Source: Anaerolineales bacterium
GTDB taxonomy: Bacteria; Chloroflexota; Anaerolineae; Anaerolineales; E44-bin32
Length of the DNA: 63,073 nt
Assembly: GCA_030606845.1 (NCBI GenBank)
Contig: JAUWFP010000001.1
Span: 1 to 63,073, forward strand
Reading direction: 5' to 3'
Shown here: piece after piece, positions 13,066 through 62,455 of the stretch
How the letters are laid out: each line of letters opens with the position of its first letter
How positions within the stretch are numbered: the first letter of the stretch is position 1
The notes under the pieces: model-generated
What the model was told of the DNA's origin: nothing
The model's database searches: none
The model's input: the letters and a program-made list of their open reading frames with translations, nothing else
Translations under genes and position numbers: made by a program

Positions 13066-13084
13066 TGGTTGATCGCCGTCAACG

Positions 13085-16225: not shown

Positions 16226-16254
16226 GCGCTCACCAGATCGCTCCGCGTAGTCTA

Positions 16255-17151: not shown

Positions 17152-17160
17152 CAGAACTCC

Positions 17161-18108: not shown

Positions 18109-18122
18109 TGGTCACCCCTCCT

Positions 18123-21034: not shown

Positions 21035-21054
21035 ACCGCATCACCATCGAATCT

Positions 21055-22083: not shown

Positions 22084-22122
22084 GATTCCGCGGCCTCCTC
22101 TTCCATGTCCGTTTTTCTGACC

Positions 22123-22419
22123 TCACCAAAAACGAGCCTTGATCTTCTCGGTCACCCCTTCCAGCACAAGCCTCAGGGTCTCCAGCTGCATCGGGGACAG
22201 GTCGCTCACATCCGAAACCTCCAAGGCAATCCACCCACGTGTGAACCATTCCAATCCCTGCCCCGCATCCAGAGCCCTGCTGAGATCCCGCGCTCGGGCG
22301 GAGGCGATGGCTGTCGAACAACCCGTCACCTGCTGAATGGCTTCCCCGAGCGACACGACCCACTCGGGCGTCTCCCCAAGCGCCTGCAGGTGGTCCCGGA
22401 TAGTGGGCTTTCCTCGCAT
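22123..22419 (-). CDS. Hypothetical protein (98 aa) between parB and cpaB
   Basis: ORF in operon orientation, 5 nt after the parB stop. No motif recognised. Confidence 0.5.
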   Translation of the reverse strand: MRGKPTIRDHLQALGETPEWVVSLGEAIQQVTGCSTAIASARARDLSRALDAGQGLEWFTRGWIALEVSDVSDLSPMQLETLRLVLEGVTEKIKARFW

Positions 22420-22424
22420 GGGTC

Positions 22425-36531: not shown

Positions 36532-36735
36532 ATGGCGGAAGAGCATCACATGGTCATGACTGTTGAGGAGGTAGCTGAGTATTTACGTATCCCTCGATCA
36601 TCGGTCTATAAACTGGCTCAGGAGGGTAGAATACCATGTCAGAAGGCGGGAAGGCGTTGGAGATTTCATCGTCAGGCGATCGATCGGTGGCTAGGAAATG
36701 GAGAAGTACAAAACTTCCCTAGGCAGAATGAGTGA
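36532..36735 (+). CDS. Excisionase-family (HTH_17/MerR-like) DNA-binding protein (67 aa)
   Basis: MTVEEVAEYLRIPRSSVYKLAQEGRIPCQKAGRRWRFHRQAIDRWL matches the excisionase-type HTH consensus. GAGGTGAAGC lies before the ATG. Confidence 0.85.
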   Translation: MAEEHHMVMTVEEVAEYLRIPRSSVYKLAQEGRIPCQKAGRRWRFHRQAIDRWLGNGEVQNFPRQNE

Positions 36736-36796
36736 ATTAATAGATTTCTCTTTTGCTCAATTGATAGACATTGGAAATGATAAAGATTGGTCCATT

Positions 36797-37948: not shown

Positions 37949-37951
37949 TCG

Positions 37952-45905: not shown

Positions 45906-45929
45906 TGAGTGAAGAAAGGAAGGATTAGA

Positions 45930-46904
45930 ATGAGTAAGATGGTGAGCAAAGATCATGAGGAAGGAAAGCCACGCTGGTCCTATCCACGTCACAAAGAGTT
46001 CAGGAAAGAGTTAGAGGCCGCCGCTTCAAGCTGGTTTTCTGATAATAAGAAACCAATAGGAAATAAAGCCCCTTATATCCTTGCCTCTCACAAAGACTGG
46101 CCAGAAAACATAATCCTGCCTTGTGTTGCAGAGTATGTGCTTTCTGAGCAAGACTCACGGTCGGAAAGAGGTGAGGGGTTTCCGCTCCATAGGTGGATCC
46201 ATCACGGTCTCAGCAGCCAGGCCATGCTATTCAATCTTGTGGGTCCACTCATTATCTCTAATGATCTTGAGCCACTGCGTGAAACTCTCAAAGCCTTTTA
46301 TATTCCTTGGCCTAAAGGGAATACAGTGGGCCGGTTCGAAATTGAGGATCGGGAGGTATTCCATGAGTGGCAAGGTCAACCAACATCGATTGATCTCGCA
46401 ATTGAGGACGGCCCTGACAGCCACACAATCTTTGTAGAAGCAAAGTTAGTCGAGCAAGAATTTGGAGGGTGCTCTGTCTTTTCTAACGGTGATTGTGATG
46501 GTCAGAACCCGGCCTCTGACCATTCACTTTGTTATCTACACCACATTGGCCGTTCTTATTGGGAGCGACTTGATGAATTCGGCTTCCTGTTTGGGCCGAT
46601 GAAAGACAGCCCGGTCTGTCTATTGTCGCAGTACTATCAATTCTTTCGGGAGATCCTGTTTACATTTGTCAAGTACGGCTATTTCATTCTGCTGGTTGAT
46701 AGGCGTAACCCCACTTTCTCAAGAGAGGGAGACCATGGAACCCGTGGACTCTTCCCCTTTTTGATCAGTTTTGTGCCTGAAGAGCACAGGAATCGAATAT
46801 GGCTTGTCACTGTGCAAGACCTTTTGAAGTCGATCCAGGATTCAGGGAGACACAACGATTGGGTTAGTGAGTTCAGGAGCAAATATGGGATTTATGTGGT
46901 CTAA
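45930..46904 (+). CDS. Hypothetical PD-(D/E)XK-like nuclease (324 aa from the ATG at 45930)
   Basis: HHGLSSQAMLFNLVGPL and IDLAIED...IFVEAKLVEQE (D...ExK). GAAAGGAAGG RBS. Confidence 0.7.
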   Translation: MSKMVSKDHEEGKPRWSYPRHKEFRKELEAAASSWFSDNKKPIGNKAPYILASHKDWPENIILPCVAEYVLSEQDSRSERGEGFPLHRWIHHGLSSQAMLFNLVGPLIISNDLEPLRETLKAFYIPWPKGNTVGRFEIEDREVFHEWQGQPTSIDLAIEDGPDSHTIFVEAKLVEQEFGGCSVFSNGDCDGQNPASDHSLCYLHHIGRSYWERLDEFGFLFGPMKDSPVCLLSQYYQFFREILFTFVKYGYFILLVDRRNPTFSREGDHGTRGLFPFLISFVPEEHRNRIWLVTVQDLLKSIQDSGRHNDWVSEFRSKYGIYVV

Positions 46905-46973
46905 ATGCATTCAAGGGTTGATGAGAACAAGTCCGGCCTGCTTATCGTTTCAGATGTTTGAAGGATTAGGCGA

Positions 46974-49805
46974 ATGACTTTTTCTGTGGGTTCTCTTGTC
47001 AAAGCCAGAGGCAGGGAATGGGTTGTCTTACCCGAGTCAGAAAAGGATTTCCTCGTGCTGCGCCCGCTAGGTGGGACGGAGGACGAGATCGCCGGCATCC
47101 ACACCGACCTGGAGGCTGTCGAAACCGCTCATTTCGATCTACCGGATCCGTCGCTCGTAGGAGACTACCGCTCCGCGCGCCTGCTACGTGATGCGGTCCG
47201 TCTTGGATTTCGCTCCAGCGCCGGTCCCTTTCGTTCATTCGGGAGGCTCGGATGCGAGCCCCGGCCCTACCAATTGGTGCCGTTGCTTGTGGCTTTAAAG
47301 CTGGATCCGATTCGCATCCTGATTGCGGACGATGTCGGTATCGGAAAAACGATCGAAGCTTGTCTCATTGCTCGAGAATTGCTCGATCGAGGTGAAGTTG
47401 CCCGCTTGGCTGTGCTCTGCCCTCCGGCTCTAGCGGAACAGTGGCAGTCGGAGCTCAGGGAGAAGTTCCATATCGAGGCGGAACTTGTGCTTTCCAGCAC
47501 GGCTGCTCGCCTAGAGAGAGGGCTGAGTCTCGGACAATCCCTCTTTGATGTCTATCCATTTGTTGTAGTTTCTACTGATTACATTAAATCTGACGTTCGG
47601 CGTGACGAATTCCTGCGGACTTGCCCTGAATTGGTGATCGTCGATGAAGCGCATACATGTGCCTTTGGACACAAAGGTCGGGGGGGTCGGCAGCAGCGCC
47701 ACGAACTGGTCTCCGGTCTTGCGACAGATGAGGATCGCCACCTTATCCTCGTCACAGCCACACCTCACAGCGGGAAGGAAGAAGCGTTCCGTTCTCTGTT
47801 GACATTCCTAACCCCAGATTTTGCTGATCTCCCTGATGAACTGAGCGGCCCGGATAACGTACAACACCGTCGGCATCTAGCGCAGCACTTCGTTCAGCGT
47901 AGAAGGGCTGACATTCGCCATTACCTTGATGCGGATACGAAATTCCCAAAACGACAGGACGCAGAGGATACCTACAATCTCTCTGATGAGTACAAGCACC
48001 TCTTCAACCGGGTTCTTCACTACGCCCGGGAGACGGTCCTGGATCCGAGCGGTGAGCATTACCGCCAACGGGTACGCTGGTGGTCGGCATTGGCTCTGCT
48101 TCGTTCGCTTGCTTCCAGCCCAGCTGCGGCAGCGGCGACCCTGCGTACACGAGCTTCCACAACAGACGCGGAGACCACAAAGGACGTGGACGAAATCGGT
48201 CGAAGAGCTGTACTGGATTTGTTGGAGGACGAGGCGGCGGAGGGAACGGACGTTGTACCAGGAGGGGACATCGGCGAACTGGCGATGGACGAGAATGCAA
48301 ATCGGCGTCGCCTGCTCGATATGGCTCGTGAGGCGGAATCTCTTATTGGTGATCAGGATACGAAGCTCATTAAAGCAATAGACATTGTCAAGAAGTTTCT
48401 CAAGGATGGATACCATCCCATCGTGTTCTGTCGTTTCATTCCTACTGCGGAATATGTGGCGGAAGAATTTCGCAAACGGCTTCCCGGGGGTATTGAAGTT
48501 GCTGCTATTACGGGCACTTTGCCACCCTCTGAACGAATGGCACGCGTGGAGCAATTGGGAAATGCAAAGAAGCGGATACTTGTCTGCACGGATTGTCTGA
48601 GTGAGGGTATCAATCTTCAGGACTATTTTGATGCCGTCATGCATTACGATCTCTCCTGGAACCCGACCCGCCATGAGCAGCGTGAGGGACGTGTGGACCG
48701 CTTCGGGCAACCAAAAGATCTCGTACGAGTTATGACTTACTACGGTGTGGATAACCAAATCGATGGCATTGTGCTGGATGTATTACTCCGCAAGCATCGC
48801 ACAATTCGGAATTCCCTAGGGATCTCCGTACCGGTTCCGGTCGACGCAGAGCAGGTAATTGAGGCGATCTTCGAAGGGCTTCTTCTGCGCGAGACCGCGG
48901 ATGCCACAGCAAAATACCTCCCAGGTTTTGAAGAGTACATCAAACCGAAGAAGGACGAACTATATCGTGAGTGGGAGGCGGCGGAAGCACGCGAGAAACG
49001 CTCTAGAACCATGTTCGCCCAAGAGACGATTATGCCCGAAGAGGTAGCAAATGAGCTGCACGCGGCCCAGGATGCCATCGGTCTTGGCGTGGATGTCAGT
49101 CGATTTTTCAATGACGCCCTCCGTGCACATAAGGGGGTCGTCCAATCGAAGAATGGTGCCTGGAGTTATCAAATCCAGGAAGTGCCGCAGGCGTTGCGAG
49201 AAATGATGGGAGCGGAAGAGGCGTTCGATGCAAAGTTTCAACTTCCTGTCCAAACAGGACAGATCCACCTCATGCGTACGCACCCGATGGTTGAAGGTCT
49301 TGCGAGCTACTTGATGGACACAGCTCTGGATCCTCTCCTAGAGAGTGCTGCGAGACGATGTGGTGTCATACGAACGAACATCGTAAATCGGAGGACGACT
49401 TTGCTGCTTGTGCGATTCCGGTATCACATCCGCACCGACGGTGGAAGTGACGATCATGCGCTTCTAGCTGAAGACATCCAAGCTTACGCTTTTGCGGGAA
49501 GCCCTGAAAAAGCGGAATGGTTAGGTACGACAGACGCCGAAGAGCTGATGATGTCCGAGCCGGAGGCCAATATCGCTCGCGAGCAAGCAAGTGGATTTAT
49601 ACACAAGGTCATTGATGGATACGCAGAGTTGGCTCCACAATTGGAGGCTTTCGCTCAGGAGCGGGGGGCCTTGCTCCTGGATGCGCACATGCGTGTACGG
49701 CAGGCAGCTCGGATGAGGGGACGGCGACCTCGAGTGGAGCCACACTTGCCCCCGGATGTCTTAGGGATTTACGTTTTCCTTCCTGCAGCCAAGTCATCTG
49801 ATTAG
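46974..49805 (+). CDS. SNF2-family helicase (943 aa), DrmD-like
   Basis: DDVGIGKTIEA (I), VIVDEAHTC (II), VTATPHSGK (III), SEGINLQ (V), QREGRVDRFGQ (VI). Confidence 0.9.
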   Translation: MTFSVGSLVKARGREWVVLPESEKDFLVLRPLGGTEDEIAGIHTDLEAVETAHFDLPDPSLVGDYRSARLLRDAVRLGFRSSAGPFRSFGRLGCEPRPYQLVPLLVALKLDPIRILIADDVGIGKTIEACLIARELLDRGEVARLAVLCPPALAEQWQSELREKFHIEAELVLSSTAARLERGLSLGQSLFDVYPFVVVSTDYIKSDVRRDEFLRTCPELVIVDEAHTCAFGHKGRGGRQQRHELVSGLATDEDRHLILVTATPHSGKEEAFRSLLTFLTPDFADLPDELSGPDNVQHRRHLAQHFVQRRRADIRHYLDADTKFPKRQDAEDTYNLSDEYKHLFNRVLHYARETVLDPSGEHYRQRVRWWSALALLRSLASSPAAAAATLRTRASTTDAETTKDVDEIGRRAVLDLLEDEAAEGTDVVPGGDIGELAMDENANRRRLLDMAREAESLIGDQDTKLIKAIDIVKKFLKDGYHPIVFCRFIPTAEYVAEEFRKRLPGGIEVAAITGTLPPSERMARVEQLGNAKKRILVCTDCLSEGINLQDYFDAVMHYDLSWNPTRHEQREGRVDRFGQPKDLVRVMTYYGVDNQIDGIVLDVLLRKHRTIRNSLGISVPVPVDAEQVIEAIFEGLLLRETADATAKYLPGFEEYIKPKKDELYREWEAAEAREKRSRTMFAQETIMPEEVANELHAAQDAIGLGVDVSRFFNDALRAHKGVVQSKNGAWSYQIQEVPQALREMMGAEEAFDAKFQLPVQTGQIHLMRTHPMVEGLASYLMDTALDPLLESAARRCGVIRTNIVNRRTTLLLVRFRYHIRTDGGSDDHALLAEDIQAYAFAGSPEKAEWLGTTDAEELMMSEPEANIAREQASGFIHKVIDGYAELAPQLEAFAQERGALLLDAHMRVRQAARMRGRRPRVEPHLPPDVLGIYVFLPAAKSSD

Positions 49806-49816
49806 AGGTTGGTGCA

Positions 49817-52800
49817 ATGCAAACGCGTAAACGAGCTGAATTCACAACGATACGAACAGAAGGGGCGATCCTGCCCCCAGATCTCCTGGAACGGGTACGG
49901 GAAGGGGAGAGCGACCTTGAAGGGATGCGCCCTGATGATTACCGCCTTGAAGCAAACGAGAAGCTGAACGAACGAATCAGCCGATCGTGGAGCCGACTAG
50001 TAGGAGCCTGGGCATCGTTTCAGTCGCATATTACAGATATCCCAGATAATGAACCAGGGACGACGGAGACACGCGAGCGTTGGCTGCTTCCACTCTTCCG
50101 TGAGCTGGACTTCGGTCGGCTGAGGACGGCGAAGGCTTATAAGCTAAATGGGAAGAGTTATCCCATCTCGCATGGATATGAGAAGGTGCCCATTCATCTC
50201 GTTGGAGCACGGGTAGCGCTGGACAGACGAAGGGCTGGGGTGGCAGGTGCAGCTCGCGCCAGCCCGCACAGCCTGGTGCAGGAACTACTCAACCGCTCGG
50301 ATGACCACCTGTGGGCATTTCTATCGAACGGTTTACGGCTCCGTATCCTGCGGGACAATGCTAGCCTAACGCGTCAGGCGTATGTAGAGTTCGATCTGGA
50401 GGCGATGATGGAGGGTGAGGTCTATGCTGACTTCGCTCTTTTGTGGCTCTTGTGTCATCAGTCGCGGGTGGAGGGGGAGATCCCAGAGGAGTTCTGGCTG
50501 GAGCGCTGGTCACTAATGGCGCAAGAGCAGGGGACTCGAGCACTGGAGCAATTGCGCGAAGGCGTGGAGGAGGCGATCCGCATCTTTGGCGAAGGATTCC
50601 TTGCACATCCTGGGAACTATACTCTTAAGGAACGACTGAGGGAAGGGGATCTAGATCCGCAGGAATATTATCGTCAGCTGTTGCGGATGGTCTACCGTCT
50701 GATCTTCCTATTTGTGGCAGAGGATCGCGGGTTGCTATTTAACCCCGCTTCAAAAACGGCAGCACGAGAACGCTATCGAGAACACTATTCGACAGCCAGA
50801 TTGCGACGCCTGGCAGAACGGCGGCGGGGGACGCGACATCCAGACCTCTATCGGGGTCTTTGGGTGGTGATGGAGAAACTCGGTTCAGATGCTGGTTGTC
50901 CGGAGTTGGGGTTGCCAGGATTGGGTGGGTTTCTTTGGTCTGAACAAGCTGTCGCAGATCTGGCGGAGTGCCAACTGGCTAATCATGATCTCTTGTATGT
51001 TGTTCGCAGCCTGGCGTTCACAGAAGAGGGACGGGTACGGCGAGCGGTGGACTACAAGAACCTGGGTCCGGAGGAGCTGGGCAGTGTGTACGAATCACTA
51101 CTGGAGCTGCAGCCCGAGATGAACGTGGATGCACCAACCTTTGATTTGAAGGTGGTGGGCGGCAGCGAACGCAAGACGACGGGTAGCTATTACACACCTA
51201 CGAGCTTAATCCAGTGCTTATTAGACAGCGCCCTAGATCCCGTGATCGAGGAAGCCTTGAAAGAAGACGATCCAGAAGAAGCCTTACTGAACCTAAAGAT
51301 CTGCGATCCGGCAACGGGAAGTGGACATTTCCTGGTGTCGGCGGCGCATCGCGTGGCGCGGAGCCTGGCTGCGGTGCGCACCGGGGATGCGGAGCCCTCG
51401 CCGGAAGCGCAGCGGACGGCGCTGAGGGAGGTGATAGGGCGCTGCCTCTACGGAGTAGACATCAACCCGGATGCGGTGGAGCTGTGCAAGGTGAACCTGT
51501 GGCTAGAGGCCATCGACCCTGGCAAGCCGCTGACGTTCCTCGATGATCAGATTCTATGCGGGAATAGCTTGTTGGGCACGACGCCGGCGCTGATGGAGAA
51601 GGGCATCCCGGATGAGGCCTTCAAGCCGATTGAGGGCGATGACAAGAAATTCGCTTCTTCACTGAAGAAGCAGAACAAGCGAGAACGACCCAAGGAAGAT
51701 CTTCTTGAGCAAGGCATTGAAAGCGCGCAATCAAGTATGTTCGCCGAATTTGAGCGCGAAGAGCGTTTTAACTATGCTCTGCTGCAGAAAGTGGCGATCG
51801 GCATTGCAGAGACGGATGACAGCAGTGTGAGCGTTGTGAGGGAGAAGGGGGAGAAGTATCGAGCGTTGCTTGAATCCGAAGCCTACCAACATTCCAAGCT
51901 AATTGCGGATGCTTGGTGTTCTGCGTTTGTGTGGCACAAGACGACCGATGCACCGGAACCGATCACGGAGGCGAGCTATCGCAAGCTGGCGAGTAATCCC
52001 AAATCAATATCGGTAAGGACAAAGAATGAGATCGAACGCCTCTCAGAACAATATCAGTTCTTCCACTGGCATCTGGCATTTGCGGGGGTCGTCTGGCTGG
52101 CGGCGGGTGGGTATGCGCCGGAGCCGGAGGTGACCGGTTGGAGCGGGGGTTTCAGTGTTGTCTTGGGAAATCCGCCCTGGGAGCGAATAAAACTACAGGA
52201 GAAGGAGTGGTTTGCAGGACGAGATGATGAGATTGTTAAAGCACGAAATAAAAATGAGCGGATGCGTTTAATCAGAAATCTTCAGGAGGAAGACCCATCT
52301 CTATATTCGGCGTTTCTTTCTGCAAAAAGAGTAGCAGAGGGTCAGAGTCATCTTATTCGAGTTTCAGGTAAATATCCTCTGTGTGGGAGAGGGGATTTCA
52401 ATACTTATGCCATTTTTTCTGAATGTTTCCGGTTAATCCTAGCGGCTATTGGAAGGGCTGGCATCATTGTTCCTTCTGGGATCGCAACTGAACAGACAAC
52501 AAAACTGTTCTTTATAGATCTGATGAAATCGTTCAAATTAATAAGCCTCTTTGATTTTCAAAATACGATGTCCCTCTTTCCCGCAGTAGATCGGAACCAG
52601 AAATTCAGTTTGTTAACGATGAGTGGGATAGAACTGAATTTCATCCAACCGAGATTTAGTTTTGCAATAGAGGACCCAATTGAATTGTCGAGAAAAGGGA
52701 GAGGCTACTCCCTCACAAATGAGGATATGCTTCTACTTAATCCAAATACAGGCACTTGCCCAACATTTCGGACGGAACGGGACGCAAAGATTATTTTGGA

Positions 52801-53923
52801 TATTTATTCACGAACACCTATCCTAATCCGAGAAGTACAAAAAATCGATAACCTTTGGGGTATCGATTTCTTTACAATGTTCCATATGTCTGGTGCGTCT
52901 AATCTATTTCGAGGAAGAGAGTATATGGAACGGGAGGGAATGGCTTCTGATGGGAATTTGTATGTGAAAGGTAATGAGGTCTATTTACCACTTTATGAAG
53001 GAAAGATGATATGGCAATACGACCATAGATACTCACAAGTTGTGCATAGCTCGGCAGGGCAAAGATTGCGAGGCAGTTCTGAGAGGGCTAGCGAAACTGA
53101 CCATCTTAATCCTGGCTTCTATCCTTTACCGAGGTACTGGGTATCTGAGAAACATACTAATCCTGAAGTTCAAGAAAGGGGTTGGGTGTTGGGATTCCGT
53201 CGTGTCGCAGGCTCTGTCTCAAATATCCGAACGGCAGTTTTTGTGATACTACCTAGCGCCGCCGTAAGTGACAGTATATTCCTTATAAATTGTGATAATG
53301 CAGAAATTGCTTGCTTATTGTTAGGGAATTTCAACTGTTTCGCCTTAGATTACATACTGAGGAACAAGATTTCCGGAATTAATCTCAGTTTCTATTTTAT
53401 TAAACAATTGCCGATTATTCCACCCGTGAATTACTCTGCGGAAATGAGAAATTTCGTTCTGTCTCGAGTTTTAGAACTTTCATATACCGCATGGGATTTG
53501 TATCGCTTTGGTATGGATTTAGGCTACGACGGACCTCCTTTTCGGTGGGACGAGTATCGCCGGTTCCTCCTTCACTGCGAGCTGGACGCGGCCTTCTTTC
53601 ATCTCTACCTGCCGGCCACGCCCGATCGCCGATGGCGACCTGCCCGCATCGCCGAGGGCGCCATGCGCGACGAGTCCGACGAGGAACTGGCCGAGCTTGA
53701 GAAACACTTCCCCATGCCGCGCCACGCGGTGGACTACATCCTGGACACCTTCCCCATCGTCCGTCGCAGGGATGAGGCTGAGTACGGCGAGTACCGCACC
53801 AAGCGCGTCATCCTGGAGATCTACGACGACATGCAGCGGGCCATCGCCACCGGCGAGCCCTACCAAACCCGTCTCGATCCCCCACCAGCGGATCCGAGGG
53901 TGGCGCATCCGGCGAGAGAGTAA
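49817..53923 (+). CDS. Large N6-adenine DNA methyltransferase, Eco57I/type IIG-L-like (1368 aa), DrmMI/PglX-like
   Basis: GSYYTP, motif I DPATGSGHFL, motif IV GNPPW, and a conserved C-terminal tail FPIVRRRDEAEYGEYRTKRVILEIYD. Confidence 0.9.
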   Translation: MQTRKRAEFTTIRTEGAILPPDLLERVREGESDLEGMRPDDYRLEANEKLNERISRSWSRLVGAWASFQSHITDIPDNEPGTTETRERWLLPLFRELDFGRLRTAKAYKLNGKSYPISHGYEKVPIHLVGARVALDRRRAGVAGAARASPHSLVQELLNRSDDHLWAFLSNGLRLRILRDNASLTRQAYVEFDLEAMMEGEVYADFALLWLLCHQSRVEGEIPEEFWLERWSLMAQEQGTRALEQLREGVEEAIRIFGEGFLAHPGNYTLKERLREGDLDPQEYYRQLLRMVYRLIFLFVAEDRGLLFNPASKTAARERYREHYSTARLRRLAERRRGTRHPDLYRGLWVVMEKLGSDAGCPELGLPGLGGFLWSEQAVADLAECQLANHDLLYVVRSLAFTEEGRVRRAVDYKNLGPEELGSVYESLLELQPEMNVDAPTFDLKVVGGSERKTTGSYYTPTSLIQCLLDSALDPVIEEALKEDDPEEALLNLKICDPATGSGHFLVSAAHRVARSLAAVRTGDAEPSPEAQRTALREVIGRCLYGVDINPDAVELCKVNLWLEAIDPGKPLTFLDDQILCGNSLLGTTPALMEKGIPDEAFKPIEGDDKKFASSLKKQNKRERPKEDLLEQGIESAQSSMFAEFEREERFNYALLQKVAIGIAETDDSSVSVVREKGEKYRALLESEAYQHSKLIADAWCSAFVWHKTTDAPEPITEASYRKLASNPKSISVRTKNEIERLSEQYQFFHWHLAFAGVVWLAAGGYAPEPEVTGWSGGFSVVLGNPPWERIKLQEKEWFAGRDDEIVKARNKNERMRLIRNLQEEDPSLYSAFLSAKRVAEGQSHLIRVSGKYPLCGRGDFNTYAIFSECFRLILAAIGRAGIIVPSGIATEQTTKLFFIDLMKSFKLISLFDFQNTMSLFPAVDRNQKFSLLTMSGIELNFIQPRFSFAIEDPIELSRKGRGYSLTNEDMLLLNPNTGTCPTFRTERDAKIILDIYSRTPILIREVQKIDNLWGIDFFTMFHMSGASNLFRGREYMEREGMASDGNLYVKGNEVYLPLYEGKMIWQYDHRYSQVVHSSAGQRLRGSSERASETDHLNPGFYPLPRYWVSEKHTNPEVQERGWVLGFRRVAGSVSNIRTAVFVILPSAAVSDSIFLINCDNAEIACLLLGNFNCFALDYILRNKISGINLSFYFIKQLPIIPPVNYSAEMRNFVLSRVLELSYTAWDLYRFGMDLGYDGPPFRWDEYRRFLLHCELDAAFFHLYLPATPDRRWRPARIAEGAMRDESDEELAELEKHFPMPRHAVDYILDTFPIVRRRDEAEYGEYRTKRVILEIYDDMQRAIATGEPYQTRLDPPPADPRVAHPARE

Positions 53924-53945: not shown

Positions 53946-54662
53946 ATGGAAATTCCATATCTCAGGATCTATCAGCAAGAACGGATTACCCATATCCGGA
54001 ACTGGTATCAGATGTGGAGTGATCTACATCTAGATAAAGAACTCGATTCGAGCGTCCGCTACCTTCTTGCTTGGACGGTATTCAACGCGCTCTACAATGT
54101 CGCCGATATGCCCAATAGAAAACCTAAAAAACCCAGTCAAAGTACTGGGCAGCCGCGGGTTAGTTGGACTCGCGAACGCAGCAAATTGAAGAAAATTGCT
54201 CATCGGTTAGCTGCGAACGGTGATTTCATCCAAGATCTATATAGAAGGAATCGCGATTTCTGTGATCAGCTTGCAAGTCGAACTCCCCAAGTTTCTCAGC
54301 CGGATCCTGTAGACGAGATCCCGTATGAGGTCGATGGGGAGGTATTTATATTTCATTCCAACGAGATCCGAGGTGTAGCGAGTCTTGACAACCGTGTCAT
54401 TCTCGATGGTGGGTATAAGCTATTCGAATATGAAACCTTAGTGATCGAAAAGAGAAAAGATGGAACCCTTATAGATCCCAAAATCTTTATCCGACACATG
54501 GTATTCGTCCTCTACCAGATTAGAAACAATGTTGCACATGGCGGATCGGCTGCCTTCTTTTTACGAGGGAATAAAGTGTCAGAGGGAGCCATAACGGTTC
54601 TTGATCATATTGTTCGGCATCTCCTTAAGAATCAAGACATTCTGTTGAGTAACGAGGAATGA
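53946..54662 (+). CDS. HEPN-domain protein (238 aa from the ATG at 53946)
   Basis: The C-terminal LYQIRNNVAHGG fits the HEPN Rx4-6H (RNxxxH) motif. The track ORF start at 53697 would overlap the methyltransferase by 227 nt, so I rejected it. Confidence 0.7.
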   Translation: MEIPYLRIYQQERITHIRNWYQMWSDLHLDKELDSSVRYLLAWTVFNALYNVADMPNRKPKKPSQSTGQPRVSWTRERSKLKKIAHRLAANGDFIQDLYRRNRDFCDQLASRTPQVSQPDPVDEIPYEVDGEVFIFHSNEIRGVASLDNRVILDGGYKLFEYETLVIEKRKDGTLIDPKIFIRHMVFVLYQIRNNVAHGGSAAFFLRGNKVSEGAITVLDHIVRHLLKNQDILLSNEE

Positions 54663-54731
54663 AGAAGTCAAACGATAAGCTTGAAGGGCAATTATCCTCT
54701 ATATAGCTTTCTAAAGAATGTAGGCGGCTTG

Positions 54732-54959
54732 ATGGCGACCTACCAACAAATCCAGGATTATGTGCGAAGAAACAACGGCTTCACACCGAAAACGTGTTGG
54801 ATCGCACACGTCAAAGACGAATTGGGATTACCAATGAGGAAGGCGTCCAATCGCCTTGGAGCTGAACGCAAGTATCCTTGCCCTGAAGATAAGAAGTCTG
54901 AGATTGAGGCTGCGTTACGTCATTTCGGGATGATCGACTTTGACCGACTACTGGGCTGA
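54732..54959 (+). CDS. Small conserved-looking hypothetical protein (75 aa; alternative TTG start at 54681)
   Basis: MATYQQIQDYVRRNNGFTPKTCWIAHVKDELGLPMRKASNR...ALRHFGMI. It lies 12 nt upstream of the next gene. I cannot name a family. Confidence 0.55.
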   Translation: MATYQQIQDYVRRNNGFTPKTCWIAHVKDELGLPMRKASNRLGAERKYPCPEDKKSEIEAALRHFGMIDFDRLLG

Positions 54960-54971
54960 AAGGGATTTCAT

Positions 54972-57017
54972 ATGGGGGAAACGATAGATACTAACATACA
55001 AGATTTTTGTAACTACATATCCACTAAAGGTTTCCGGATTTTAAGTGACAATACAATTGATTATGGCCGTCAATTGCTTGTAACGGATGATACGCATAGA
55101 TGTCCTGTGAATTTCTACGATTCAGGGAAGATTGTTGTTGGAGGGAAGAGCTCCTCCCTCAAAGATGATTTAACCGAATGGGCGAATTTACAGCAATCAG
55201 GGATCAAAGATACTGTACGCGTTAGTCCACAGATCAGGAACCGCATCGCTAAGTTTCTAGTTATTCCTGAAAATATTGAGAATGTACGAAAAACAATCCT
55301 TCCAGGATTACCAGGTGAAGTAGAGGAAAAAAGTCCATCTGGTTCCGCAGAACTCTACCGATTAGAGGTACGTCGAGATCCTCATAGGGTTACCGTAACA
55401 CAGTATCAATCCGGCACTTTGATGATTCAAGGATTATCAAGTCCCCTATTTGACGATGTGTGTGATGTCCTTGACACCCATCTTAGTCAGTCCTTCTCTG
55501 CCCGTGCTGCTCGATATATCCCCGGAAATGATGAGGAATTGAGCAAGGCTGAATCCTATTTAGATAGCGCTGAAGCTGAAAACGAAGCTGTATCGTGGCT
55601 CCATGAACAAATCGGTCAACGAGCAATCGAATTTTGTTTCCAAAATGACCAAAATACCCTAATTGCTGCTGCTGGGGTTCGGAATGCAATCAAGTCAACC
55701 AAATTAAACTTGCCTGATTATTCTGTAGTCGTCATGCCATTTGCCAAAGCGTTTGAGGGGTTTCTCATTCGTCTTGCGATTCACCTCAGTGTTGCGGAAG
55801 AAGCTGTTGTTCGAGAAAAAGCGAGCGAGATTGTAGTTGCTAATTGGCTGGTTGAAATTGAGAAGAGAATTCCAGATCGACGGCGGTATGGCGAGTCAAT
55901 TATTGCATTGAAAGCCGCTTGGGAATGTAGACACAAGGCTATTCACTCCGACCCCGAATATCCATATTCCATCCTACCAACGCTTACAGATGCTGAGGCA
56001 GAGATATCTACGATTGTGCGAGCTATCCGAAGAGCGTATGGTGTGTTTTGTGAGGAGGGATTAGCACTACCACAAGACGGAAAGGAAGCTACTGGGGTTC
56101 CTGACCCTAACAAATTCACATATACAAACGTAGATCGACAGGCACTCTATGATCAGTTAATACGGGATAGTTACGAGGTTGTTCCTCAAGAGAAAGGGAA
56201 GCGGAATGAGTGGGAAATCCTCTCCCCTCCAGATCTCATCGTTGTTGCCCCTTCTGTTAATCCTGGTTTGATCATTGTTGAGGGGAATGACGCTCCGTTA
56301 TTTATTTCACGGTACCGCCAATTACTAGAGGCTAGGACAATACCGAAAGAGCCCCAACCTTCAGAGAGACCTATGCTCAGGATCGGGGTCGATGAGTCTG
56401 GCAAAGGAGACCTGTTCGGTCCATTAGTGATTGCTGGTGTCGTCCTCACACCCGAAAGTGAGATCGTTGTCGCGAAACATGGTGTCAAGGATAGCAAATC
56501 ATTATCCGATTCGAGGATCCTTGATCTATCTGCGGTGATTCGCCAGTTCTGCGAGCACGAAGTCATTACCCTGCTCCCTCCTGAGTACAACCAAGCCTAT
56601 TCTGAGCATAACCAAAACCTAAACAACTTGTTAGCATGGGGGCACGCCGAGATCATCTCGCGATTGCATGGTCGCACTCAAGCGCGGATTGCCGTGTCTG
56701 ATCAGTTTGCGGACGAGAACCTGATTCTTAGGGAGCTTGAGGGGCGAGGTATCACGATCGACCTTGAACAACGTCCTCACGCTGAAGATGATCTGGCAGT
56801 AGCAGCTGCTTCGATCTTGGCAAGGGCAGCGTTCATAAAAGCGATCCAGGATTACACAATTAAATCCGGGATTGAAATACCACGCGGATCGTCATCCCAT
56901 GAGGTCAAGAAGGTTGCGGACAGGATCTACGATAAATGGGGCCTGAAGGGTTTAGAGAGGATTTGCAAGATGCATTTTAAGACGATCAAGCAAGTGATCT
57001 CTGAGGGGAAGAAATGA
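54972..57017 (+). CDS. RNase HIII-family protein with repeated N-terminal DUF3378/TBP-like modules and a roughly 200-aa helical insert (681 aa)
   Basis: The C-terminus carries IGVDESGKGDLFGPLVIAGV, GVKDSKSLSD, VSDQFAD, DDLAVAAASILAR, IPRGSSSHEV and KMHFKT, which align with B. subtilis RnhC as I recall it. The N-terminus has NFYDSGKIVVGGK and TQYQSGTLMIQG (compare RnhC TAYQSGKVLFQGK). The insert contains RHKAIH (Rx4H). Confidence 0.85.
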   Translation: MGETIDTNIQDFCNYISTKGFRILSDNTIDYGRQLLVTDDTHRCPVNFYDSGKIVVGGKSSSLKDDLTEWANLQQSGIKDTVRVSPQIRNRIAKFLVIPENIENVRKTILPGLPGEVEEKSPSGSAELYRLEVRRDPHRVTVTQYQSGTLMIQGLSSPLFDDVCDVLDTHLSQSFSARAARYIPGNDEELSKAESYLDSAEAENEAVSWLHEQIGQRAIEFCFQNDQNTLIAAAGVRNAIKSTKLNLPDYSVVVMPFAKAFEGFLIRLAIHLSVAEEAVVREKASEIVVANWLVEIEKRIPDRRRYGESIIALKAAWECRHKAIHSDPEYPYSILPTLTDAEAEISTIVRAIRRAYGVFCEEGLALPQDGKEATGVPDPNKFTYTNVDRQALYDQLIRDSYEVVPQEKGKRNEWEILSPPDLIVVAPSVNPGLIIVEGNDAPLFISRYRQLLEARTIPKEPQPSERPMLRIGVDESGKGDLFGPLVIAGVVLTPESEIVVAKHGVKDSKSLSDSRILDLSAVIRQFCEHEVITLLPPEYNQAYSEHNQNLNNLLAWGHAEIISRLHGRTQARIAVSDQFADENLILRELEGRGITIDLEQRPHAEDDLAVAAASILARAAFIKAIQDYTIKSGIEIPRGSSSHEVKKVADRIYDKWGLKGLERICKMHFKTIKQVISEGKK

Positions 57018-58309
57018 CTGAAACTAGGTCGACTTACGAGGACGCAGAATCCCTGCGAAAAGCGAAGAAGTATAGCGAAGCCGCAGCCATCTTTAGTGCA
57101 CTCTGGAAAGATGAGCCATCCCCGATGGTTGGATGGCGCTATGCATATTCCTTGCGTAAACAGAGGGAATTTGAAGCAGCAGAAGAAATCATCCTTTCAG
57201 CTCTAGAGCTTTATCCCGAAGACAAATGGACGGTTAGTGAGTATGTGTGGATCCTGAATGACAAAGAGATCAAGCCTGCGATTGATCAGAAAGACTTAGG
57301 CCGAGTATTAAACGCAGCCAATGCTCTTGTGGCCTACAATCCACAGGAAATGGCCTTGCATCGCCTTTGTTTTCAGGTCATGAAGGCGGCAAAAACCCGA
57401 AATCGATGGGATGTGGTGTTGGAATGGGTGGGGAAATTGCGGCCAAGCCAGCTCAGTATCGAGCCCCCTCAATTCTCGGGCAAGCGCGGGATGTCAGATC
57501 GTGAGCAGTGGTACGTAGCTTGTTCGCGTGCCTATCTCGAATTGGATCAATTCAAGGAGGCTCGAGCTGCAGCTGAAGAAGGGTTGCGGGAATTTCCGAA
57601 TGAAGTCTTTCTGAAGCGAACTGCATCACTTGCTCTGGCTAGGATGGGATCGCAGCAGGAAGCTGCAGATGAATTGCGTGCTTTGTTATCACATCCAAGA
57701 GCGGATTGGTATTTTAAAGCGGATTTAGCTGGGATTGAATACCAAATCGGCAACTTGGACGAGGCTTACCTGCTTTTATGTGACGCAGTTTCGAATTCTC
57801 AAGACCCCCAATTTAAATTGAGATATTTCACAACGCTTGTCGAAATCTCTTTGCAGCTCGGCGAGCTAGATACGGCTTCAGAGCACATAGCGCTCATTCG
57901 AGCGATCCGTGAAGCCGAGGGTTGGTTGATCCCTGAGGAGATAGTATTCCTTGAGCAGAAGCTGGAAAAAGACTATCAAGAAACGGGTGAGCAGCGTCCC
58001 GAGTTGCCTAGTGGGGTTCGCGAACTTGAGAGATTGTGCGCTAGGAGATGGTCTATAGGAAAAACGAAAGGGTTGGAGAGAGGTACCGGAACGATTAAAT
58101 TCATTGTGGATGAGAAGTCATTTACGTTCATTTCCCGTGACGATGGCGGTGAGGATATTTTTGCATTGGTTAAGGACATCCCACCAAAACTGAAACATGA
58201 AGGCGCAAGGGTGGATTTTGCGATTACGGAGAGCTTTGATAGGAAGAAAGGCAAGAAGTCTGTCCGGGCTATTGATATCCGATCATTAGGAGTTCAGCAA
58301 AGACCTTGA
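57014..58309 (+). CDS. TPR-repeat protein with a C-terminal cold-shock/S1-like OB domain (431 aa)
   Basis: Helical repeat N-terminus. The C-terminal GTGTIKFIVDEKSFTFISRDDGGEDIFALV...GARVDFAI resembles the CspA pattern GTVKWFNxxKGFGFIxxDDGxDVFVH. It shares an ATGA overlap with the upstream gene. Confidence 0.8.
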   Translation: MTETRSTYEDAESLRKAKKYSEAAAIFSALWKDEPSPMVGWRYAYSLRKQREFEAAEEIILSALELYPEDKWTVSEYVWILNDKEIKPAIDQKDLGRVLNAANALVAYNPQEMALHRLCFQVMKAAKTRNRWDVVLEWVGKLRPSQLSIEPPQFSGKRGMSDREQWYVACSRAYLELDQFKEARAAAEEGLREFPNEVFLKRTASLALARMGSQQEAADELRALLSHPRADWYFKADLAGIEYQIGNLDEAYLLLCDAVSNSQDPQFKLRYFTTLVEISLQLGELDTASEHIALIRAIREAEGWLIPEEIVFLEQKLEKDYQETGEQRPELPSGVRELERLCARRWSIGKTKGLERGTGTIKFIVDEKSFTFISRDDGGEDIFALVKDIPPKLKHEGARVDFAITESFDRKKGKKSVRAIDIRSLGVQQRP

Positions 58310-58364
58310 ATAATTCGCACAGTTTTGTGGACTATAGATCTATATGCATAGAGAGGAAAGCCCC

Positions 58365-61223
58365 ATGAATATTATTCCTATTAGGCAAGCTATTCGACAA
58401 TTCGTCGAGAACTTTGAGTCGGATCAAGAGATTACGAGTCATGACTTGGAACACCAACAGCGAATCGCAAATGCGCAACGGATATTCCATCAAAATTACT
58501 TGGAGAATGTGTCGCGCGAAGATCTTGAAGAATTCCTAAAAGATACAGACGCATTTTTTGGTGTGCGCGGGAAGGTCCGGCTCTTTCGTGAGCTCTTCGG
58601 AGAAGAAGGAGAGCGTTTACCCGGGGTCAGAGCACTTTTTTCGGATCTCATCCAGCGTGCAGAAGTCGGACTTACCCCACAGGATCTAAACGAGATTCGC
58701 CCACAGCTGCGCTATATTGGCGATGCGTTTCTCTCTGAAATCTTATCTTTACGGTTCCCAGTGAAGTACTGGATCTGGAATGGTCAGGTCCGACGTTTCC
58801 TGGAGGGTCTTGGTGTTGATATCAAGGAGGATCTACCTTACGGCAAGAAAGGTGATCGCGGCGAGCAATATTTTGCGGCAGGGAAGCACATCGTTGAGCT
58901 TCGAAGGGCTCTGAGTGAAGTCATCGGCAAGCCTGTCGATTACATGAAAACAGACTTATTTATCTTCTGGTATAACCAGCGAACAGAGCCCGACCCATTG
59001 GTAGAGCGGGTCGCTGCGTGGCTTAAAGAAAGTTTCCCTGAAGATCGGTTGAAGATTCGGCTAAAGGGGGAGGAAAAAGCACGGGAGTTACTCAAGAAGA
59101 AAGCCGGCAAATTCACCGAGGAAGACCTGCGAGATTTTGCCATTCTCATCAATCGGGACTTGGTCAAGGGGAAAGAACGCAAAGATCGATTCATGCCGGG
59201 GCTCTACGGTCATCAAATCAACCAGATGGCAAGTGATTTGGGCTCATTTAATCGATGGGTCAAACGCATATGGGAGTCTGGTGAGGATGACCTCGATTCA
59301 ACACTTGATGCGTTCTGGGAGGCTGGGGAGGTCTCTGGCGCTGGGACATCGCTACCTACTGCGCTTCTCTATCTGCGTGATCCAAAGAAATTCAACGTCT
59401 GGCTCCCCATCATGGAAGGCGGCTTGAGTGTTGCAGCTGGCTTTGACCCGGGACGGAAAAGACGCGCGCGCGCGTATCGTCTTTATAACGAGAATCTCAT
59501 CCAATTTCGCGACAAGTATGGACTGCCGCCACAAAGTTTAGATGTGATCCTGTGGTATTTCGCCAAATTGGATCAGACGGATGGCGTTGATTTTGATTTT
59601 GCGGGTTTTACGGAGGAGACCTTCCAATTCTTGAAGGAATTGGAAAAGAATAACTCCAAAGAATGGATGAACAAGGATGACGGTGCAAACAAGCGTAGGT
59701 ATCAAGAACATCTGAGAGAACCATTGCGCCAGCTCTTTCAGGCGGTGGCCCCAAAGATCCAATCCCTGGATCCGAGTTTGGAAACCGAAGCGAAATCCGG
59801 GAAGGTTATGGCTGGGTTCTATAAGCGATTTCCTGATGAGAAGGGTGATTACTATCCCTATCTGTGGGGGGCTTTTTACCGACGGGATCGTAAGAAGCAA
59901 ACGGACGCCCAGTTGTTTATTAATGTACATACTAATCATGTGAATATTGGACTCTCTGTTGCAGGGTCGCGAGGTTCGGATGTCCTCGCTAATTTTCAAA
60001 AAAACTTGCGCGAAGAGCCGAAGGTATTCTTGGAACTCATCAAGGATCTTCCGGATAATTTAGAGATCGTGACGGCTGAAGGTCATGGAAAACAAGAGAA
60101 GGTCATCGTCGAAATCCAGAATGAACAGGATATCGAGAAGATAGCAAATCTAGAAGTGATCGATATCCAACGGCGATATCTTGAGGAAGAGGACATTCTC
60201 TATACACCTGATCTTGCTCTAGAAGCCGAGGAGATCTTCGTTGCGCTTCACCCACTTTTCCGCTTTATAACGATCGAAGATACAAAGCAACTCATTGACT
60301 TGATTGACGAAGATGACCTGATTATCGATGAAGTTCCGCAGGGTGAGCTTTACACTGTTGATGCCTTTGCTCAAGACACCTTCCTTGATGATTCCGTCAT
60401 AAAGCAGCTCGAGTTCCTCCTCCGAGATAAAAGACAACTTATCTTCTTCGGACCACCAGGTACTGGTAAAACGTGGATCGCCAAGAAATTTGCCAAGTAT
60501 TGGGTAGATTCAGCCCCAGAGTTAGGTGGAGAAGTCCGCACGATTCAGTTCCACCCCTCTTATGCCTATGAAGAGTTCATGGAGGGTATTCGTCCTGAGA
60601 GTGTCGAGATAGCAGATGGCCGACATGAAATTGCCTATCCCGTTCGCGCCGGCGTATTCCGTGAGTTTTGCGATAAAGCACGAGCTCAACCGCAACGGCG
60701 GTTTATGCTGATCGTCGATGAGATCAATCGCGGCGAATTGCCGAGGATCTTCGGCGAGTTGATGTACCTACTTGAATACCGCCAGGAAGTCATTGCCTTG
60801 CCTTACTCAAAGCAGTCCTTCTCGATCCCCCAAAATGTGTTCATTCTGGGAACGATGAACACAGCCGATCGCTCGATCGCGCTTGTCGATCATGCATTGC
60901 GTCGTCGTTTTCACTTCTTCAAGTTAGTGCCTAGTCCAGAGATTTTGCGGAGTTATCTTGAGGCCACAAACCAGTTGGAGATGATCTGGGCGGCCGATCT
61001 CTTGGATGAGGTCAATCGCCAACTTGAATCAGACGGGATCGAGTGGCATCTCCACGTTGGTCATAGTCATTTTATGCGACCGGCGCTGGATGAAACTCAA
61101 GTTCGCATGACCTGGCGTCATAGCATCATGCCGACGCTTGAGGAGTACTTCTACAGGCAGCCGGAGCGTCTTGGAGCCTACCAAATCGACAGCTTATTAG
61201 AAGCCTTGGGTGTGATTGCATGA
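58365..61223 (+). CDS. mcrB: McrB-family AAA+ GTPase with a roughly 640-aa N-terminal extension that includes a DUF2461-like region (952 aa)
   Basis: FFGPPGTGKTW, LIVDEINRGELPRIFGELMYLLEYR and GTMNTADRSIALVDHALRRRFHF (AAA_5/McrB). The central FQFLKELEKNNSKEWMNKDD...YYPYLWGAFYR resembles TIGR02453/DUF2461. Confidence 0.85.
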   Translation: MNIIPIRQAIRQFVENFESDQEITSHDLEHQQRIANAQRIFHQNYLENVSREDLEEFLKDTDAFFGVRGKVRLFRELFGEEGERLPGVRALFSDLIQRAEVGLTPQDLNEIRPQLRYIGDAFLSEILSLRFPVKYWIWNGQVRRFLEGLGVDIKEDLPYGKKGDRGEQYFAAGKHIVELRRALSEVIGKPVDYMKTDLFIFWYNQRTEPDPLVERVAAWLKESFPEDRLKIRLKGEEKARELLKKKAGKFTEEDLRDFAILINRDLVKGKERKDRFMPGLYGHQINQMASDLGSFNRWVKRIWESGEDDLDSTLDAFWEAGEVSGAGTSLPTALLYLRDPKKFNVWLPIMEGGLSVAAGFDPGRKRRARAYRLYNENLIQFRDKYGLPPQSLDVILWYFAKLDQTDGVDFDFAGFTEETFQFLKELEKNNSKEWMNKDDGANKRRYQEHLREPLRQLFQAVAPKIQSLDPSLETEAKSGKVMAGFYKRFPDEKGDYYPYLWGAFYRRDRKKQTDAQLFINVHTNHVNIGLSVAGSRGSDVLANFQKNLREEPKVFLELIKDLPDNLEIVTAEGHGKQEKVIVEIQNEQDIEKIANLEVIDIQRRYLEEEDILYTPDLALEAEEIFVALHPLFRFITIEDTKQLIDLIDEDDLIIDEVPQGELYTVDAFAQDTFLDDSVIKQLEFLLRDKRQLIFFGPPGTGKTWIAKKFAKYWVDSAPELGGEVRTIQFHPSYAYEEFMEGIRPESVEIADGRHEIAYPVRAGVFREFCDKARAQPQRRFMLIVDEINRGELPRIFGELMYLLEYRQEVIALPYSKQSFSIPQNVFILGTMNTADRSIALVDHALRRRFHFFKLVPSPEILRSYLEATNQLEMIWAADLLDEVNRQLESDGIEWHLHVGHSHFMRPALDETQVRMTWRHSIMPTLEEYFYRQPERLGAYQIDSLLEALGVIA

Positions 61224-62455
61224 GCACGGTTCTTCAATTACGCGAGCATCGGGAGGTTGAATATAGGCTCTCGCAAGAGCAAGTTGCTGTCATCCAGAAG
61301 AGCTTCAAAGATGAAGTTGTGCTCACGCCCACGCTCATTAAGGATCATTACATACTTCGAGCCGGTTCACACGTCGGGTTCCTCCAGCTGCCAGGGGGCC
61401 TAACGCTTGTCATCGAGCCAAAAATCCCGATCGACACTATTTTCTTCCTGCTCACTTTTGTGTATGACCCGACCAAAGAGATCTTCCGCCAGGAAGAACA
61501 GCGCTATACGACAATAGATGGTTTGTTTGAATATGTTGTCGAGGTCTTTACGCATCAAGTCGAGGATCTCATCGCCCGTGGCATATTAAGAAACTATCAA
61601 GTTCGGCATGATGATTTGCTGGCGATCCGGGGCAAGCTTCAAATCATGGAAACGCTCAGGCGAAGACCTGTCATTCGAGATCGCCACTGGTGTTCTTTCA
61701 GCCATTTCACCCCTGACGTTCCCGAGAATGTGATCCTGCGAGCAACCGTCCATATGTTGAAGTTCCATGCGTATCGAGCGGCCGATTTACCAAGTCGGTT
61801 GAGGCGCCTCGAACGCGCCTTAGCCGAAGTTGCCCTCGACCCTGAGCCGCTCGACTTATTCGATCTGCTCGAGTTCCATCGCCTCAATGAGCATTATCGG
61901 CCGACGCTCAGTCTAGCCTGTCTGCTCCTTGAGCACATCACCTTCACTGGGGCAGTAGGAAGACAAGCGTTTTTGTCCTTCTTAATCGATATGGATTGGC
62001 TCTTCGAAAAAGTGATTGAAGCGTTCTTGCAGCGCTGGAGTCCGATGGGCCTTCAAGCGGTGGGGCAAAGACAGTATGCGCTTGATCGAGGAGCGCATGT
62101 GAAGGTTAGGCCTGACGTGATTCTACTGCGGGGACGAAAGCCGGTTTTCGCCTTAGACGCCAAATACAAGTTGGATCCCAATAGAGCCGATATCTACCAG
62201 ATCCTTGCGTATTGCCATGCCCTCGGCATTCAAGAAGCAGCCCTGGCTTACCCGTACACCGAAAAAGTGCCCGTGGGACGACTATCCATCCGGGAACCCG
62301 GCAATGTGGGCATCCATTATGTCCCCATAGATCTCAGCGGCACACCGGAAGAGATCGAGGTCAAGGGAAAAGCGTTCGCTGAGAGGATCGGGCAGTTGAT
62401 CCACTACGCGTATAGCAGAGAAGATCAGAGTGTTACTTATGCTGTGAAGGCTTAA
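61220..62455 (+). CDS. mcrC: McrC-family restriction endonuclease subunit (411 aa)
   Basis: VRPDVILL...FALDAKYK PD-(D/E)xK motif. It shares a 4-nt overlap with mcrB. Confidence 0.85.
   Translation: MSTVLQLREHREVEYRLSQEQVAVIQKSFKDEVVLTPTLIKDHYILRAGSHVGFLQLPGGLTLVIEPKIPIDTIFFLLTFVYDPTKEIFRQEEQRYTTIDGLFEYVVEVFTHQVEDLIARGILRNYQVRHDDLLAIRGKLQIMETLRRRPVIRDRHWCSFSHFTPDVPENVILRATVHMLKFHAYRAADLPSRLRRLERALAEVALDPEPLDLFDLLEFHRLNEHYRPTLSLACLLLEHITFTGAVGRQAFLSFLIDMDWLFEKVIEAFLQRWSPMGLQAVGQRQYALDRGAHVKVRPDVILLRGRKPVFALDAKYKLDPNRADIYQILAYCHALGIQEAALAYPYTEKVPVGRLSIREPGNVGIHYVPIDLSGTPEEIEVKGKAFAERIGQLIHYAYSREDQSVTYAVKA

Follow-up and report, generated by a model that had tools for sequence, protein, structure and literature searches.

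An RnlA-type toxin fused to RNase HIII and its TPR-cold-shock partner: a predicted TOTE conflict system encoded by an Anaerolineales bacterium

The window analysed in this study, a term used throughout for the whole 63,073-nucleotide stretch examined, is positions 1 to 63,073 of contig JAUWFP010000001.1 (assembly GCA_030606845.1) from an Anaerolineales bacterium of the Chloroflexota. Between positions 53946 and 58309 it carries four genes, here named A to D, which are co-directional on the plus strand, with gaps of 69 nt between A and B and of 12 nt between B and C, and with a 4-nt ATGA stop/start overlap at the C-D junction. The last two genes form the conserved unit described here: C encodes a protein in which, according to its structural model, a whole RnlA/RNase LS toxin is joined to a whole RNase HIII, and D encodes a protein with TPR repeats and a cold-shock domain (CSD). 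By its architecture the C-D pair fits the TOTE conflict systems, and it is probably a functional two-gene unit that would work in the manner of RnlAB, as an RNase system triggered by nucleic acids, with D controlling C and helping in sensing. The initial annotation had proposed that the four genes constitute a single defence module belonging to no named system. Its gene coordinates, intergenic distances and quoted motifs are all in place, and the exact proteins of A, B, C and D are gene calls in a public collection (4/4), but A is present in none and B in only one of 30 related loci, which leaves C-D as the only conserved unit.

The structure of C was modelled with AlphaFold (AF2) from 37 homologues (predicted local distance difference test, pLDDT, 87.8) and is comprised of five domains, in the order TBP-like, TBP-like, all-helical, TBP-like and RNase H catalytic (Table 1). 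When compared with the PDB using Foldseek, the first three domains match whole RnlA (6y2p, 6y2r and 4i8o; E ~1e-8, ~375 columns) and the last two match whole RNase HIII (3asm and 4py5; E ~1e-16). The three copies of the substrate-binding motif that had been noticed in C, NFYDSGKIVVGGK at residue 47, TQYQSGTLMIQG at residue 143 and GLIIVEGNDAP at residue 432, are each located in a separate TBP-like domain of the model. The family profile of C matches LsoA (5hy3) in the first TBP-like domain with an E of 7e-4. The second TBP-like region is weakly matched in the window protein by PF11858 (DUF3378) and PF15935 (RnlA_toxin), two families found in 31 and 32 of the 37 C-family members, respectively, and residues G148, Q153 and G154 of this region are invariant in the 37-sequence alignment.

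C had been taken for an oversized RNase HIII with a helical insert. The helical region exists and is an RnlA-type HEPN domain, but it is no insert, the N-terminal half of C being modelled as a complete RnlA toxin; the RHKAIH motif (residues 320-325), as had been expected of it, falls within this HEPN fold. The motifs LPDYSVVVMPFAK259AFE262GF and CR320HKAIH325 of C correspond to LPDYCMLLYPELR255TIE258GV and ER318HSLFH323 of E. coli RnlA, in which R255, E258, R318 and H323 are the residues for catalysis or substrate binding (PMC8266594). Three of the counterparts in C (E262, R320 and H325) are invariant in the 37 sequences; the fourth, K259, stands in place of R255, a conservative R-to-K change, and its invariance is limited to the 10-sequence main-clade alignment A3.

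The C-terminal RNase HIII catalytic domain recognised in the initial annotation is borne out by TIGR00716 (rnhC; 201.2 bits, cutoff 161.2), by PF01351 on residues 471-671 (E 3e-25) and by the PDB RNase HIII sequences, which match C with E down to 8e-30. The PDB alignments begin at residues 414-432 and the rnhC profile at residue 432. The last 300 residues thus correspond to a complete bacterial RNase HIII, with its TBP-like N-domain and a DEDE site whose four residues are invariant in the 37 sequences. Unlike bacterial RNase HIII, which is a stand-alone housekeeping enzyme of ~300 aa, C has an extra RnlA toxin of 370 aa at its N-terminus, its gene has a TPR-CSD gene as obligate neighbour, and it has spread patchily and by horizontal transfer. 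In a library of viral proteins the sole significant match to C is an 'RNaseLS-like protein' of a phage (E 1e-10). Based on the RnlA fold match, the aligned motifs and the invariant HEPN and RNase HIII residues, C is read as both enzymes, each complete, and both nuclease sites look active.

The AF2 model of D (pLDDT 92.5; predicted template modelling score, pTM, 0.81) and the Pfam matches agree with the initial reading of this protein as TPR repeats fused to a cold-shock-like OB domain. PF00313 (CSD) matches D with 27.1 bits against a cutoff of 27, and both the CSD and a DUF7017 region (residues 199-316 of D) are found in 25 of 25 D-family members. It had been anticipated that PADLOC would match none of the four genes; D is nevertheless matched over its full length by the PADLOC profile PDLC01170, 'TPR repeats containing protein fused to cold shock-like domain (OB-fold)', with an E of 4e-31. 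The PADLOC PDC-M16B models match the DUF7017 region only (E 7.5e-9 to 3e-5) and the PDC-M16A models match no protein scanned here, so that the combination defining the PADLOC candidate PDC-M16 (M16A together with M16B) is absent. Literature searches returned no system to which the PDLC01170 TPR profile or PDC-M16 belongs. A specific structural relative of D was sought with Foldseek, which gave generic TPR structures only.

D is located directly after C in 28 of the 30 related loci, and this order holds down to ~25% identity. It is seen in five distinct loci retrieved by exact look-up, in all 20 distinct metagenome loci having DNA past C, the metagenome search for C having used an alignment of its N-terminal half only, and in L120, a clade with 32% identity; in these sets the 4-nt overlap is usually kept. 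Two loci, from the deltaproteobacterium RBG_16_54_11 (L011) and from Reichenbachiella agariperforans DSM 26134 (L066), encode C as two separate proteins in the order rnlA-like (365 and 370 aa), rnhC-like (310 and 315 aa) and D-like (441 and 422 aa, 25-27% identical to D). These split rnlA-like proteins pass the RnlA-toxin_DBD cutoff (PF19034, 28.1 bits in L066), and the protein of L011, with 38.3 and 36.4 bits on the RnlA Pfam models, also passes the RnlA_toxin cutoff. Another locus (L122, 5001-8653) encodes a 775-aa protein composed of a Lon_C/ChlI-type protease, a TBP-like domain and an RNase HIII, and, downstream of it, a TPR-CSD protein resembling D (26% identity), next to a type I restriction-modification (R-M) operon; judged from its domains, this locus is an effector-swapped relative of the C-D unit. 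A frameshifted copy of C without D was found in L121, where the RNase HIII domain of the C homologue is fused to an ADP-ribosylglycohydrolase domain (P0080; 4213-6749); this is a copy in decay or else one more variant. In two other loci (L001, 10040-11328; L114, 6170-7431) the D homologue is frameshifted into two pieces, which suggests that the partner gene occasionally decays.

Approximately 100 homologues of C, mostly of ~680 aa and annotated with PF15935 and PF01351, were found in hosts ranging from Nitrospirales and Blastocatellia to a Methanomethylicaceae archaeon at ~50% identity. A profile search with the N-terminal half of C retrieved only 372 clusters among 1.84 billion representatives; their lengths are bimodal, with stand-alone forms of ~360 aa and fused forms of ~600-700 aa, and 29 of 36 long forms contain the RNase H motif DESGKG. 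When 185,579 species genomes were scanned, at least 596 relatives of the RNase HIII type were retrieved, the results being dominated by ordinary RNase HIII, as the search patterns lay in the RNase HIII domain; among the best 80 of these loci, only two (L011 and L066) have the RnlA-like half. No C-like genes were found on plasmids or in viral contigs. The neighbours of C-D vary, and include GmrSD, a methylase and a WYL protein (L003), a TIR protein (L005), a WYL protein with an SNF2-NOV_C helicase (L113), HepT/MNT (L001) and a methylase (L007, L009 and the window). C-D behaves as a mobile accessory cassette, several copies of which lie amid defence genes, and not as a housekeeping rnhC.

The initial annotation knew of no named system with this gene set. 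Systems named TOTE, for TPR, OB, TBP and Effector, were described by Aravind, Iyer and Burroughs (2022); as summarised in the passages on them in a citing preprint (PMC12458937), they pair a TPR-CSD fusion protein with TBP proteins and often include RNase H domains. Set against that summary, D supplies the TPR-OB fusion, the three domains of C supply the TBP-like part, and the invariant HEPN and RNase HIII sites of C supply the effector, which is exchanged in L122; a difference is that in C-D the TBP and effector parts are all found in one polypeptide of 681 aa. The pair thus fits a TOTE conflict system as the preprint's summary defines it. Pfam contains TOTE-named models, and the assignment is made by architecture rather than by a curated score, since the TOTE-named CSD model is only weakly matched: PF22707 (S1CSD-TOTE-2) is a weak match in 8 of the 25 D-family members (best E 0.024), a TOTE-named CSD model gives 16.9 bits against a cutoff of 27 on the D-like protein of L066, and none of these models matches the window D at E<=1. 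PADLOC-DB v2 holds a profile of the D family only and does not represent C-D as a system. As far as the searchable literature shows, TOTE systems have so far only been predicted. In line with the initial annotation, the pair shows no retron signature: an Rfam scan of the window gave 0 families at gathering score, the retron Se72 effector model reaches 23.9 bits on the CSD of D, far below its cutoff of 82, and no reverse transcriptase domain was found among the proteins scanned, which are part of the open reading frames (ORFs) of the window.

A second comparison is with the anti-phage toxin-antitoxin systems RnlA-RnlB and LsoA-LsoB of E. coli, with whose toxins C has the TBP1-TBP2-HEPN fold in common, together with the four key residues at unchanged spacing. 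The gene rnlB follows and overlaps the toxin gene rnlA, the same order as in C-D, and both systems have a tie to RNase H, provided in trans by RNase HI in E. coli, where RnlA needs this enzyme for its activation and for the recruitment of RnlB via its NRD (second TBP-like) domain (PMC5308261), and by a type 2 enzyme (RNase HIII) in cis or in the same operon here. The partners differ, the 431-aa TPR-CSD protein of C-D having no similarity to the 123-aa RnlB. A precedent for the fusion itself is found among the 'two-headed RNases', in which an RNase LS HEPN domain is joined to RNase H and/or TBP-like domains, as in C, and which have been read as targeting the RNA in DNA-RNA duplexes, according to the passages concerned in Anantharaman et al. 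(2013; PMC3710099). The RNase H described in those passages is caulimovirus-like, N-terminal and of the RNase HI fold, whereas that of C is a C-terminal RNase HIII (PF01351), and they mention no TPR-CSD partner of the kind present in C-D.

From these comparisons we infer an anti-phage role for the pair, an inhibitor or sensor role for D, and the nature of the trigger. The combination of nucleic-acid-binding modules (CSD and TBP-like/DUF3378) with a hybrid nuclease and a HEPN RNase, on which the initial annotation had built its idea of defence, is confirmed at the level of domains. In the reading that we consider probable, D, placed after C as rnlB is after rnlA, would be both the regulatory and the sensor partner. 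In the uninfected cell it would keep C inactive, or at least under control. On infection, the CSD of D and the three TBP-like domains of C would together recognise a nucleic-acid cue, for instance RNA/DNA hybrids, R-loops or single strands. The HEPN head would then cleave mRNA, while the RNase HIII head would degrade RNA within hybrids, and phage gene expression and replication would be halted, possibly at a cost to the cell.

Several observations weigh against this RnlAB-like reading. The window C scores below the Pfam cutoffs for the RnlA families (PF19034, 15.3 bits, and PF15935, 13.8 bits, versus 27). D has no similarity to RnlB (BLASTP E 20) and its structure matches are generic, so that its role as inhibitor or sensor is argued from gene position and domain logic. 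In a Halanaerocella-type clade (L010) the fused nuclease occurs with no D beside it. L105 and L109 have kept D while their RNase HIII catalytic domain has decayed, so that certain lineages, at least, can do without this head. Roughly half of the related loci lie amid metabolic or regulatory genes and not amid defence genes (L066, L100, L102 and L106), and no experiment that ties the C-D family to phage defence or toxicity was found in the literature.

The RnlAB-like reading can be extended, tentatively, by one step: the fused RNase HIII may play, within the same protein, the part of the RNase HI on which E. coli RnlA depends in trans, and D may replace RnlB as a nucleic-acid-sensing antitoxin. 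Should this be true, two proteins, or three where C is split, would contain the entire RnlA-RNase H control circuit, whose working in E. coli is still puzzling, and would respond to RNA/DNA hybrids as the signal of infection.

Among the alternatives, the one that survives best, although we regard it as unlikely, is that D is a substrate-recognition subunit whose CSD and TPR repeats bring C to single-stranded nucleic acid or R-loops, so that the system would act directly and without abortive infection, with RNase HIII as its main head. The CSD is a binder of single-stranded nucleic acid and is conserved throughout the D family, the RNase HIII active site is invariant, and the D-like protein remains constant where the head other than RNase H varies (HEPN in the window, Lon protease in L122); the interpretation of RNase LS fusions with RNase H or TBP domains as hitting RNA in DNA-RNA duplexes, given in those passages of Anantharaman et al., points the same way. 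On the other hand, L105 and L109 keep the RnlA-like gene and D with the RNase HIII catalytic domain lost, the known members of the RnlA family are toxins that need an antitoxin, and the gene order and overlap mirror those of rnlA-rnlB.

It is very unlikely that C is a housekeeping variant of RNase HIII which clears R-loops or primers, with D as a cold-shock-type RNA chaperone and neither of them having a role in conflict. Such a role would agree with the rnhC profile scoring above its cutoff on C, with the name 'ribonuclease HIII' given to C relatives in public sources and with the several loci that lie amid ordinary genes. It is opposed by the patchy spread of this tiny family, whose members at ~50% identity span distant phyla and archaea, by the rarity of the RnlA-like half among RNase HIII-type loci, by the invariant HEPN toxin site of C, and by neighbourhoods that are not conserved and in which truncated and frameshifted copies occur.

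The remaining proposal, that A, B, C and D are a single four-gene defence operon with two HEPN RNases, an RNase HIII and sensors acting jointly, is in line with the co-directional, tightly spaced genes and with the lack of a convincing terminator or promoter between them (promoter, terminator and repeat scans of the region gave nothing above chance), but can hardly be upheld in view of the related C-D loci that do without A and, with one exception, without B, of the other genes that occupy A's slot between methylase and C-D in L007 and L009, of the A relatives that follow methylase, BREX and type I R-M operons without C-D, and of the B relatives scattered over plasmids and phages.

Table 1. 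Coordinates of the C-D unit, of genes A and B and of further features of the window.
Feature	Window coordinates	Strand	Description or basis
Gene C	54972-57017	+	681 aa, RnlA/RNase LS-like toxin + RNase HIII (modelled); predicted effector of the two-gene unit
C residues 1-76	54972-55199	+	First TBP-like domain (= RnlA NTD/TBP1); model secondary structure
C residues 90-168	55239-55475	+	Second TBP-like domain (= RnlA NRD/TBP2); model and Foldseek
C residues 175-361	55494-56054	+	RnlA-type HEPN domain with K259, E262, R320, H325; model, Foldseek and motifs
C residues 381-452	56112-56327	+	Third TBP-like domain, RNase HIII's own N-terminal hybrid-binding domain; model strands 381-437
C residues 470-681	56379-57014	+	RNase HIII catalytic domain with D474, E475, D577, E605
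Gene D	57014-58309	+	431 aa, TPR-CSD protein, translationally coupled to C by the ATGA overlap
D residues 8-350	57035-58063	+	TPR superhelix; Pfam TPR families and model
D residues 356-424	58079-58285	+	Cold-shock/OB domain; five strands in model
Gene A	53946-54662	+	238 aa, probable HEPN protein; WxxFNALYN ... LYQxRNNxxHGG
Gene B	54732-54959	+	75 aa, small mobile-element protein; 12 nt upstream of C
McrB-like protein	58344-62455		Region with a protein of 959 aa that starts 34 nt past D; long N-terminal region with DUF2461, then AAA_5 GTPase module
Tyrosine integrase	9927-11000		
T2SSE/VirB11-type ATPase	18123-19676		
ParB-like gene	22425-23663		

Gene A belongs to a rare family of 16 proteins in which the two motifs listed in Table 1 are invariant. 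Its HEPN-type motif RNNVAH (residues 193-198) is present as had been pointed out, and a HEPN fold for A is probable, based on the invariant RNNxxHGG motif, on a weak match of PF18735 (HEPN_RiboL-PSP) in 7 of the 16 family members and on one relative named 'Apea-like HEPN' at its source. Pfam, PADLOC, NCBIfam and PHROGs gave no match to the window protein, a profile search of the PDB for A returned only noise, and an hhalign comparison with the HEPN region of C gave a probability of 0.4%.

In the window, A begins 22 nt past a 1368-aa methylase. In L093 its relative immediately follows a homologous methylase, of the Eco57I/PglX type; in L092 it follows a type I R-M/Kiwa cluster whose last element is an 87-residue C-terminal remnant from that methylase family; and in L091 it follows the BrxL of a BREX system. 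The operons that precede these relatives are without C-D. In L007 and L009, the loci closest to that of the window, C-D is found downstream of the same methylase, and the slot of A is taken by a PDDEXK_3 gene and an 85-aa ORF in the former and by an unrelated 248-aa gene and B in the latter. Membership of A in the C-D module was rejected on account of its absence from the 30 related loci and of the contexts of its relatives, which come last in methylase, BREX and type I R-M operons and so place A with the upstream system. A is best read, from these gene contexts, as a HEPN-type protein that accompanies methylase-based systems, of a class outlined in passages of Anantharaman et al. (2013; PMC3710099), and as a separate cassette.

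Gene B has a full-length match to phrog_27283 (E 2e-17) and has homologues on 109 plasmids and in 7 phages, in unrelated settings and, in the records inspected, not beside C-D. Among the C-D loci it was found only in L009, the nearest relative, with 75% identity. B is probably co-transcribed with C in the window, yet it is not a conserved component, and its candidacy as a C-D-specific regulator was rejected on account of its relatives on unrelated plasmids and phages. In Streptococcus phage YS162 (L117, 1423-1635) the product of a coding sequence annotated as SAM-dependent methyltransferase ends in 70 residues that resemble B, from which it appears that B may be a detachable domain.

The A-D region is flanked upstream by the PglX/DrmMI-like methylase and downstream by an McrB-like gene (DUF2461+AAA_5) followed by McrC. 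The initial annotation had placed the four genes between a DISARM-like system and McrBC; the McrB-like and McrC genes are present, but the upstream gene order is not that of classical DISARM. The upstream cluster (40731-53923) encodes a YprA/DruE-like helicase (1724 aa; DruE, E 1e-102), a 331-aa ORF, an SNF2 helicase of the BrxHII/DrmD/DpdE-like type (DpdE, E 1e-266) and the PglX/DrmMI-like methylase, an order which is that of ARMADA type I as described in PMC12458937. McrBC was also considered as a partner of C-D and rejected, no other C-D locus having an McrB or McrC homologue beside it. Just upstream of the helicase, at 36698-40441, a Metallophos (SbcD-like) gene is paired with a gene for an SMC/LmuB-like ATPase, and weak relatives of the window's Metallophos protein are encoded just downstream of D in L008 and L009. 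Within the methylase gene (49817-53923) the GC content falls from ~0.56 (50-52 kb) to ~0.47 (52-54 kb), which suggests that the C-terminal half of the methylase is recombinant. The GC content of positions 8000-24500, the block in which the integrase, the T2SSE/VirB11-type ATPase and the ParB-like gene of Table 1 lie, is 55-63%, compared with 44-50% elsewhere in the window. The window is a mosaic, and may represent an integrative or conjugative element carrying a defence island.

The analysis narrows a vague four-gene candidate to a precise and clonable two-gene unit, in which both catalytic sites are conserved and for which natural split, fused and effector-swapped forms are available for comparison. 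For annotation, it means that the current name 'ribonuclease HIII' hides the toxin half of the C-family proteins. The occurrence in nature of an RnlA-type toxin and an RNase H in one protein or one operon independently supports the dependence of RnlA on RNase HI in E. coli, and C-D offers a simpler setting in which to ask how a HEPN toxin is controlled by RNA/DNA hybrids or RNase H. The pair thereby provides a clean experimental handle on the TOTE systems and on the connection between RnlA and RNase H.

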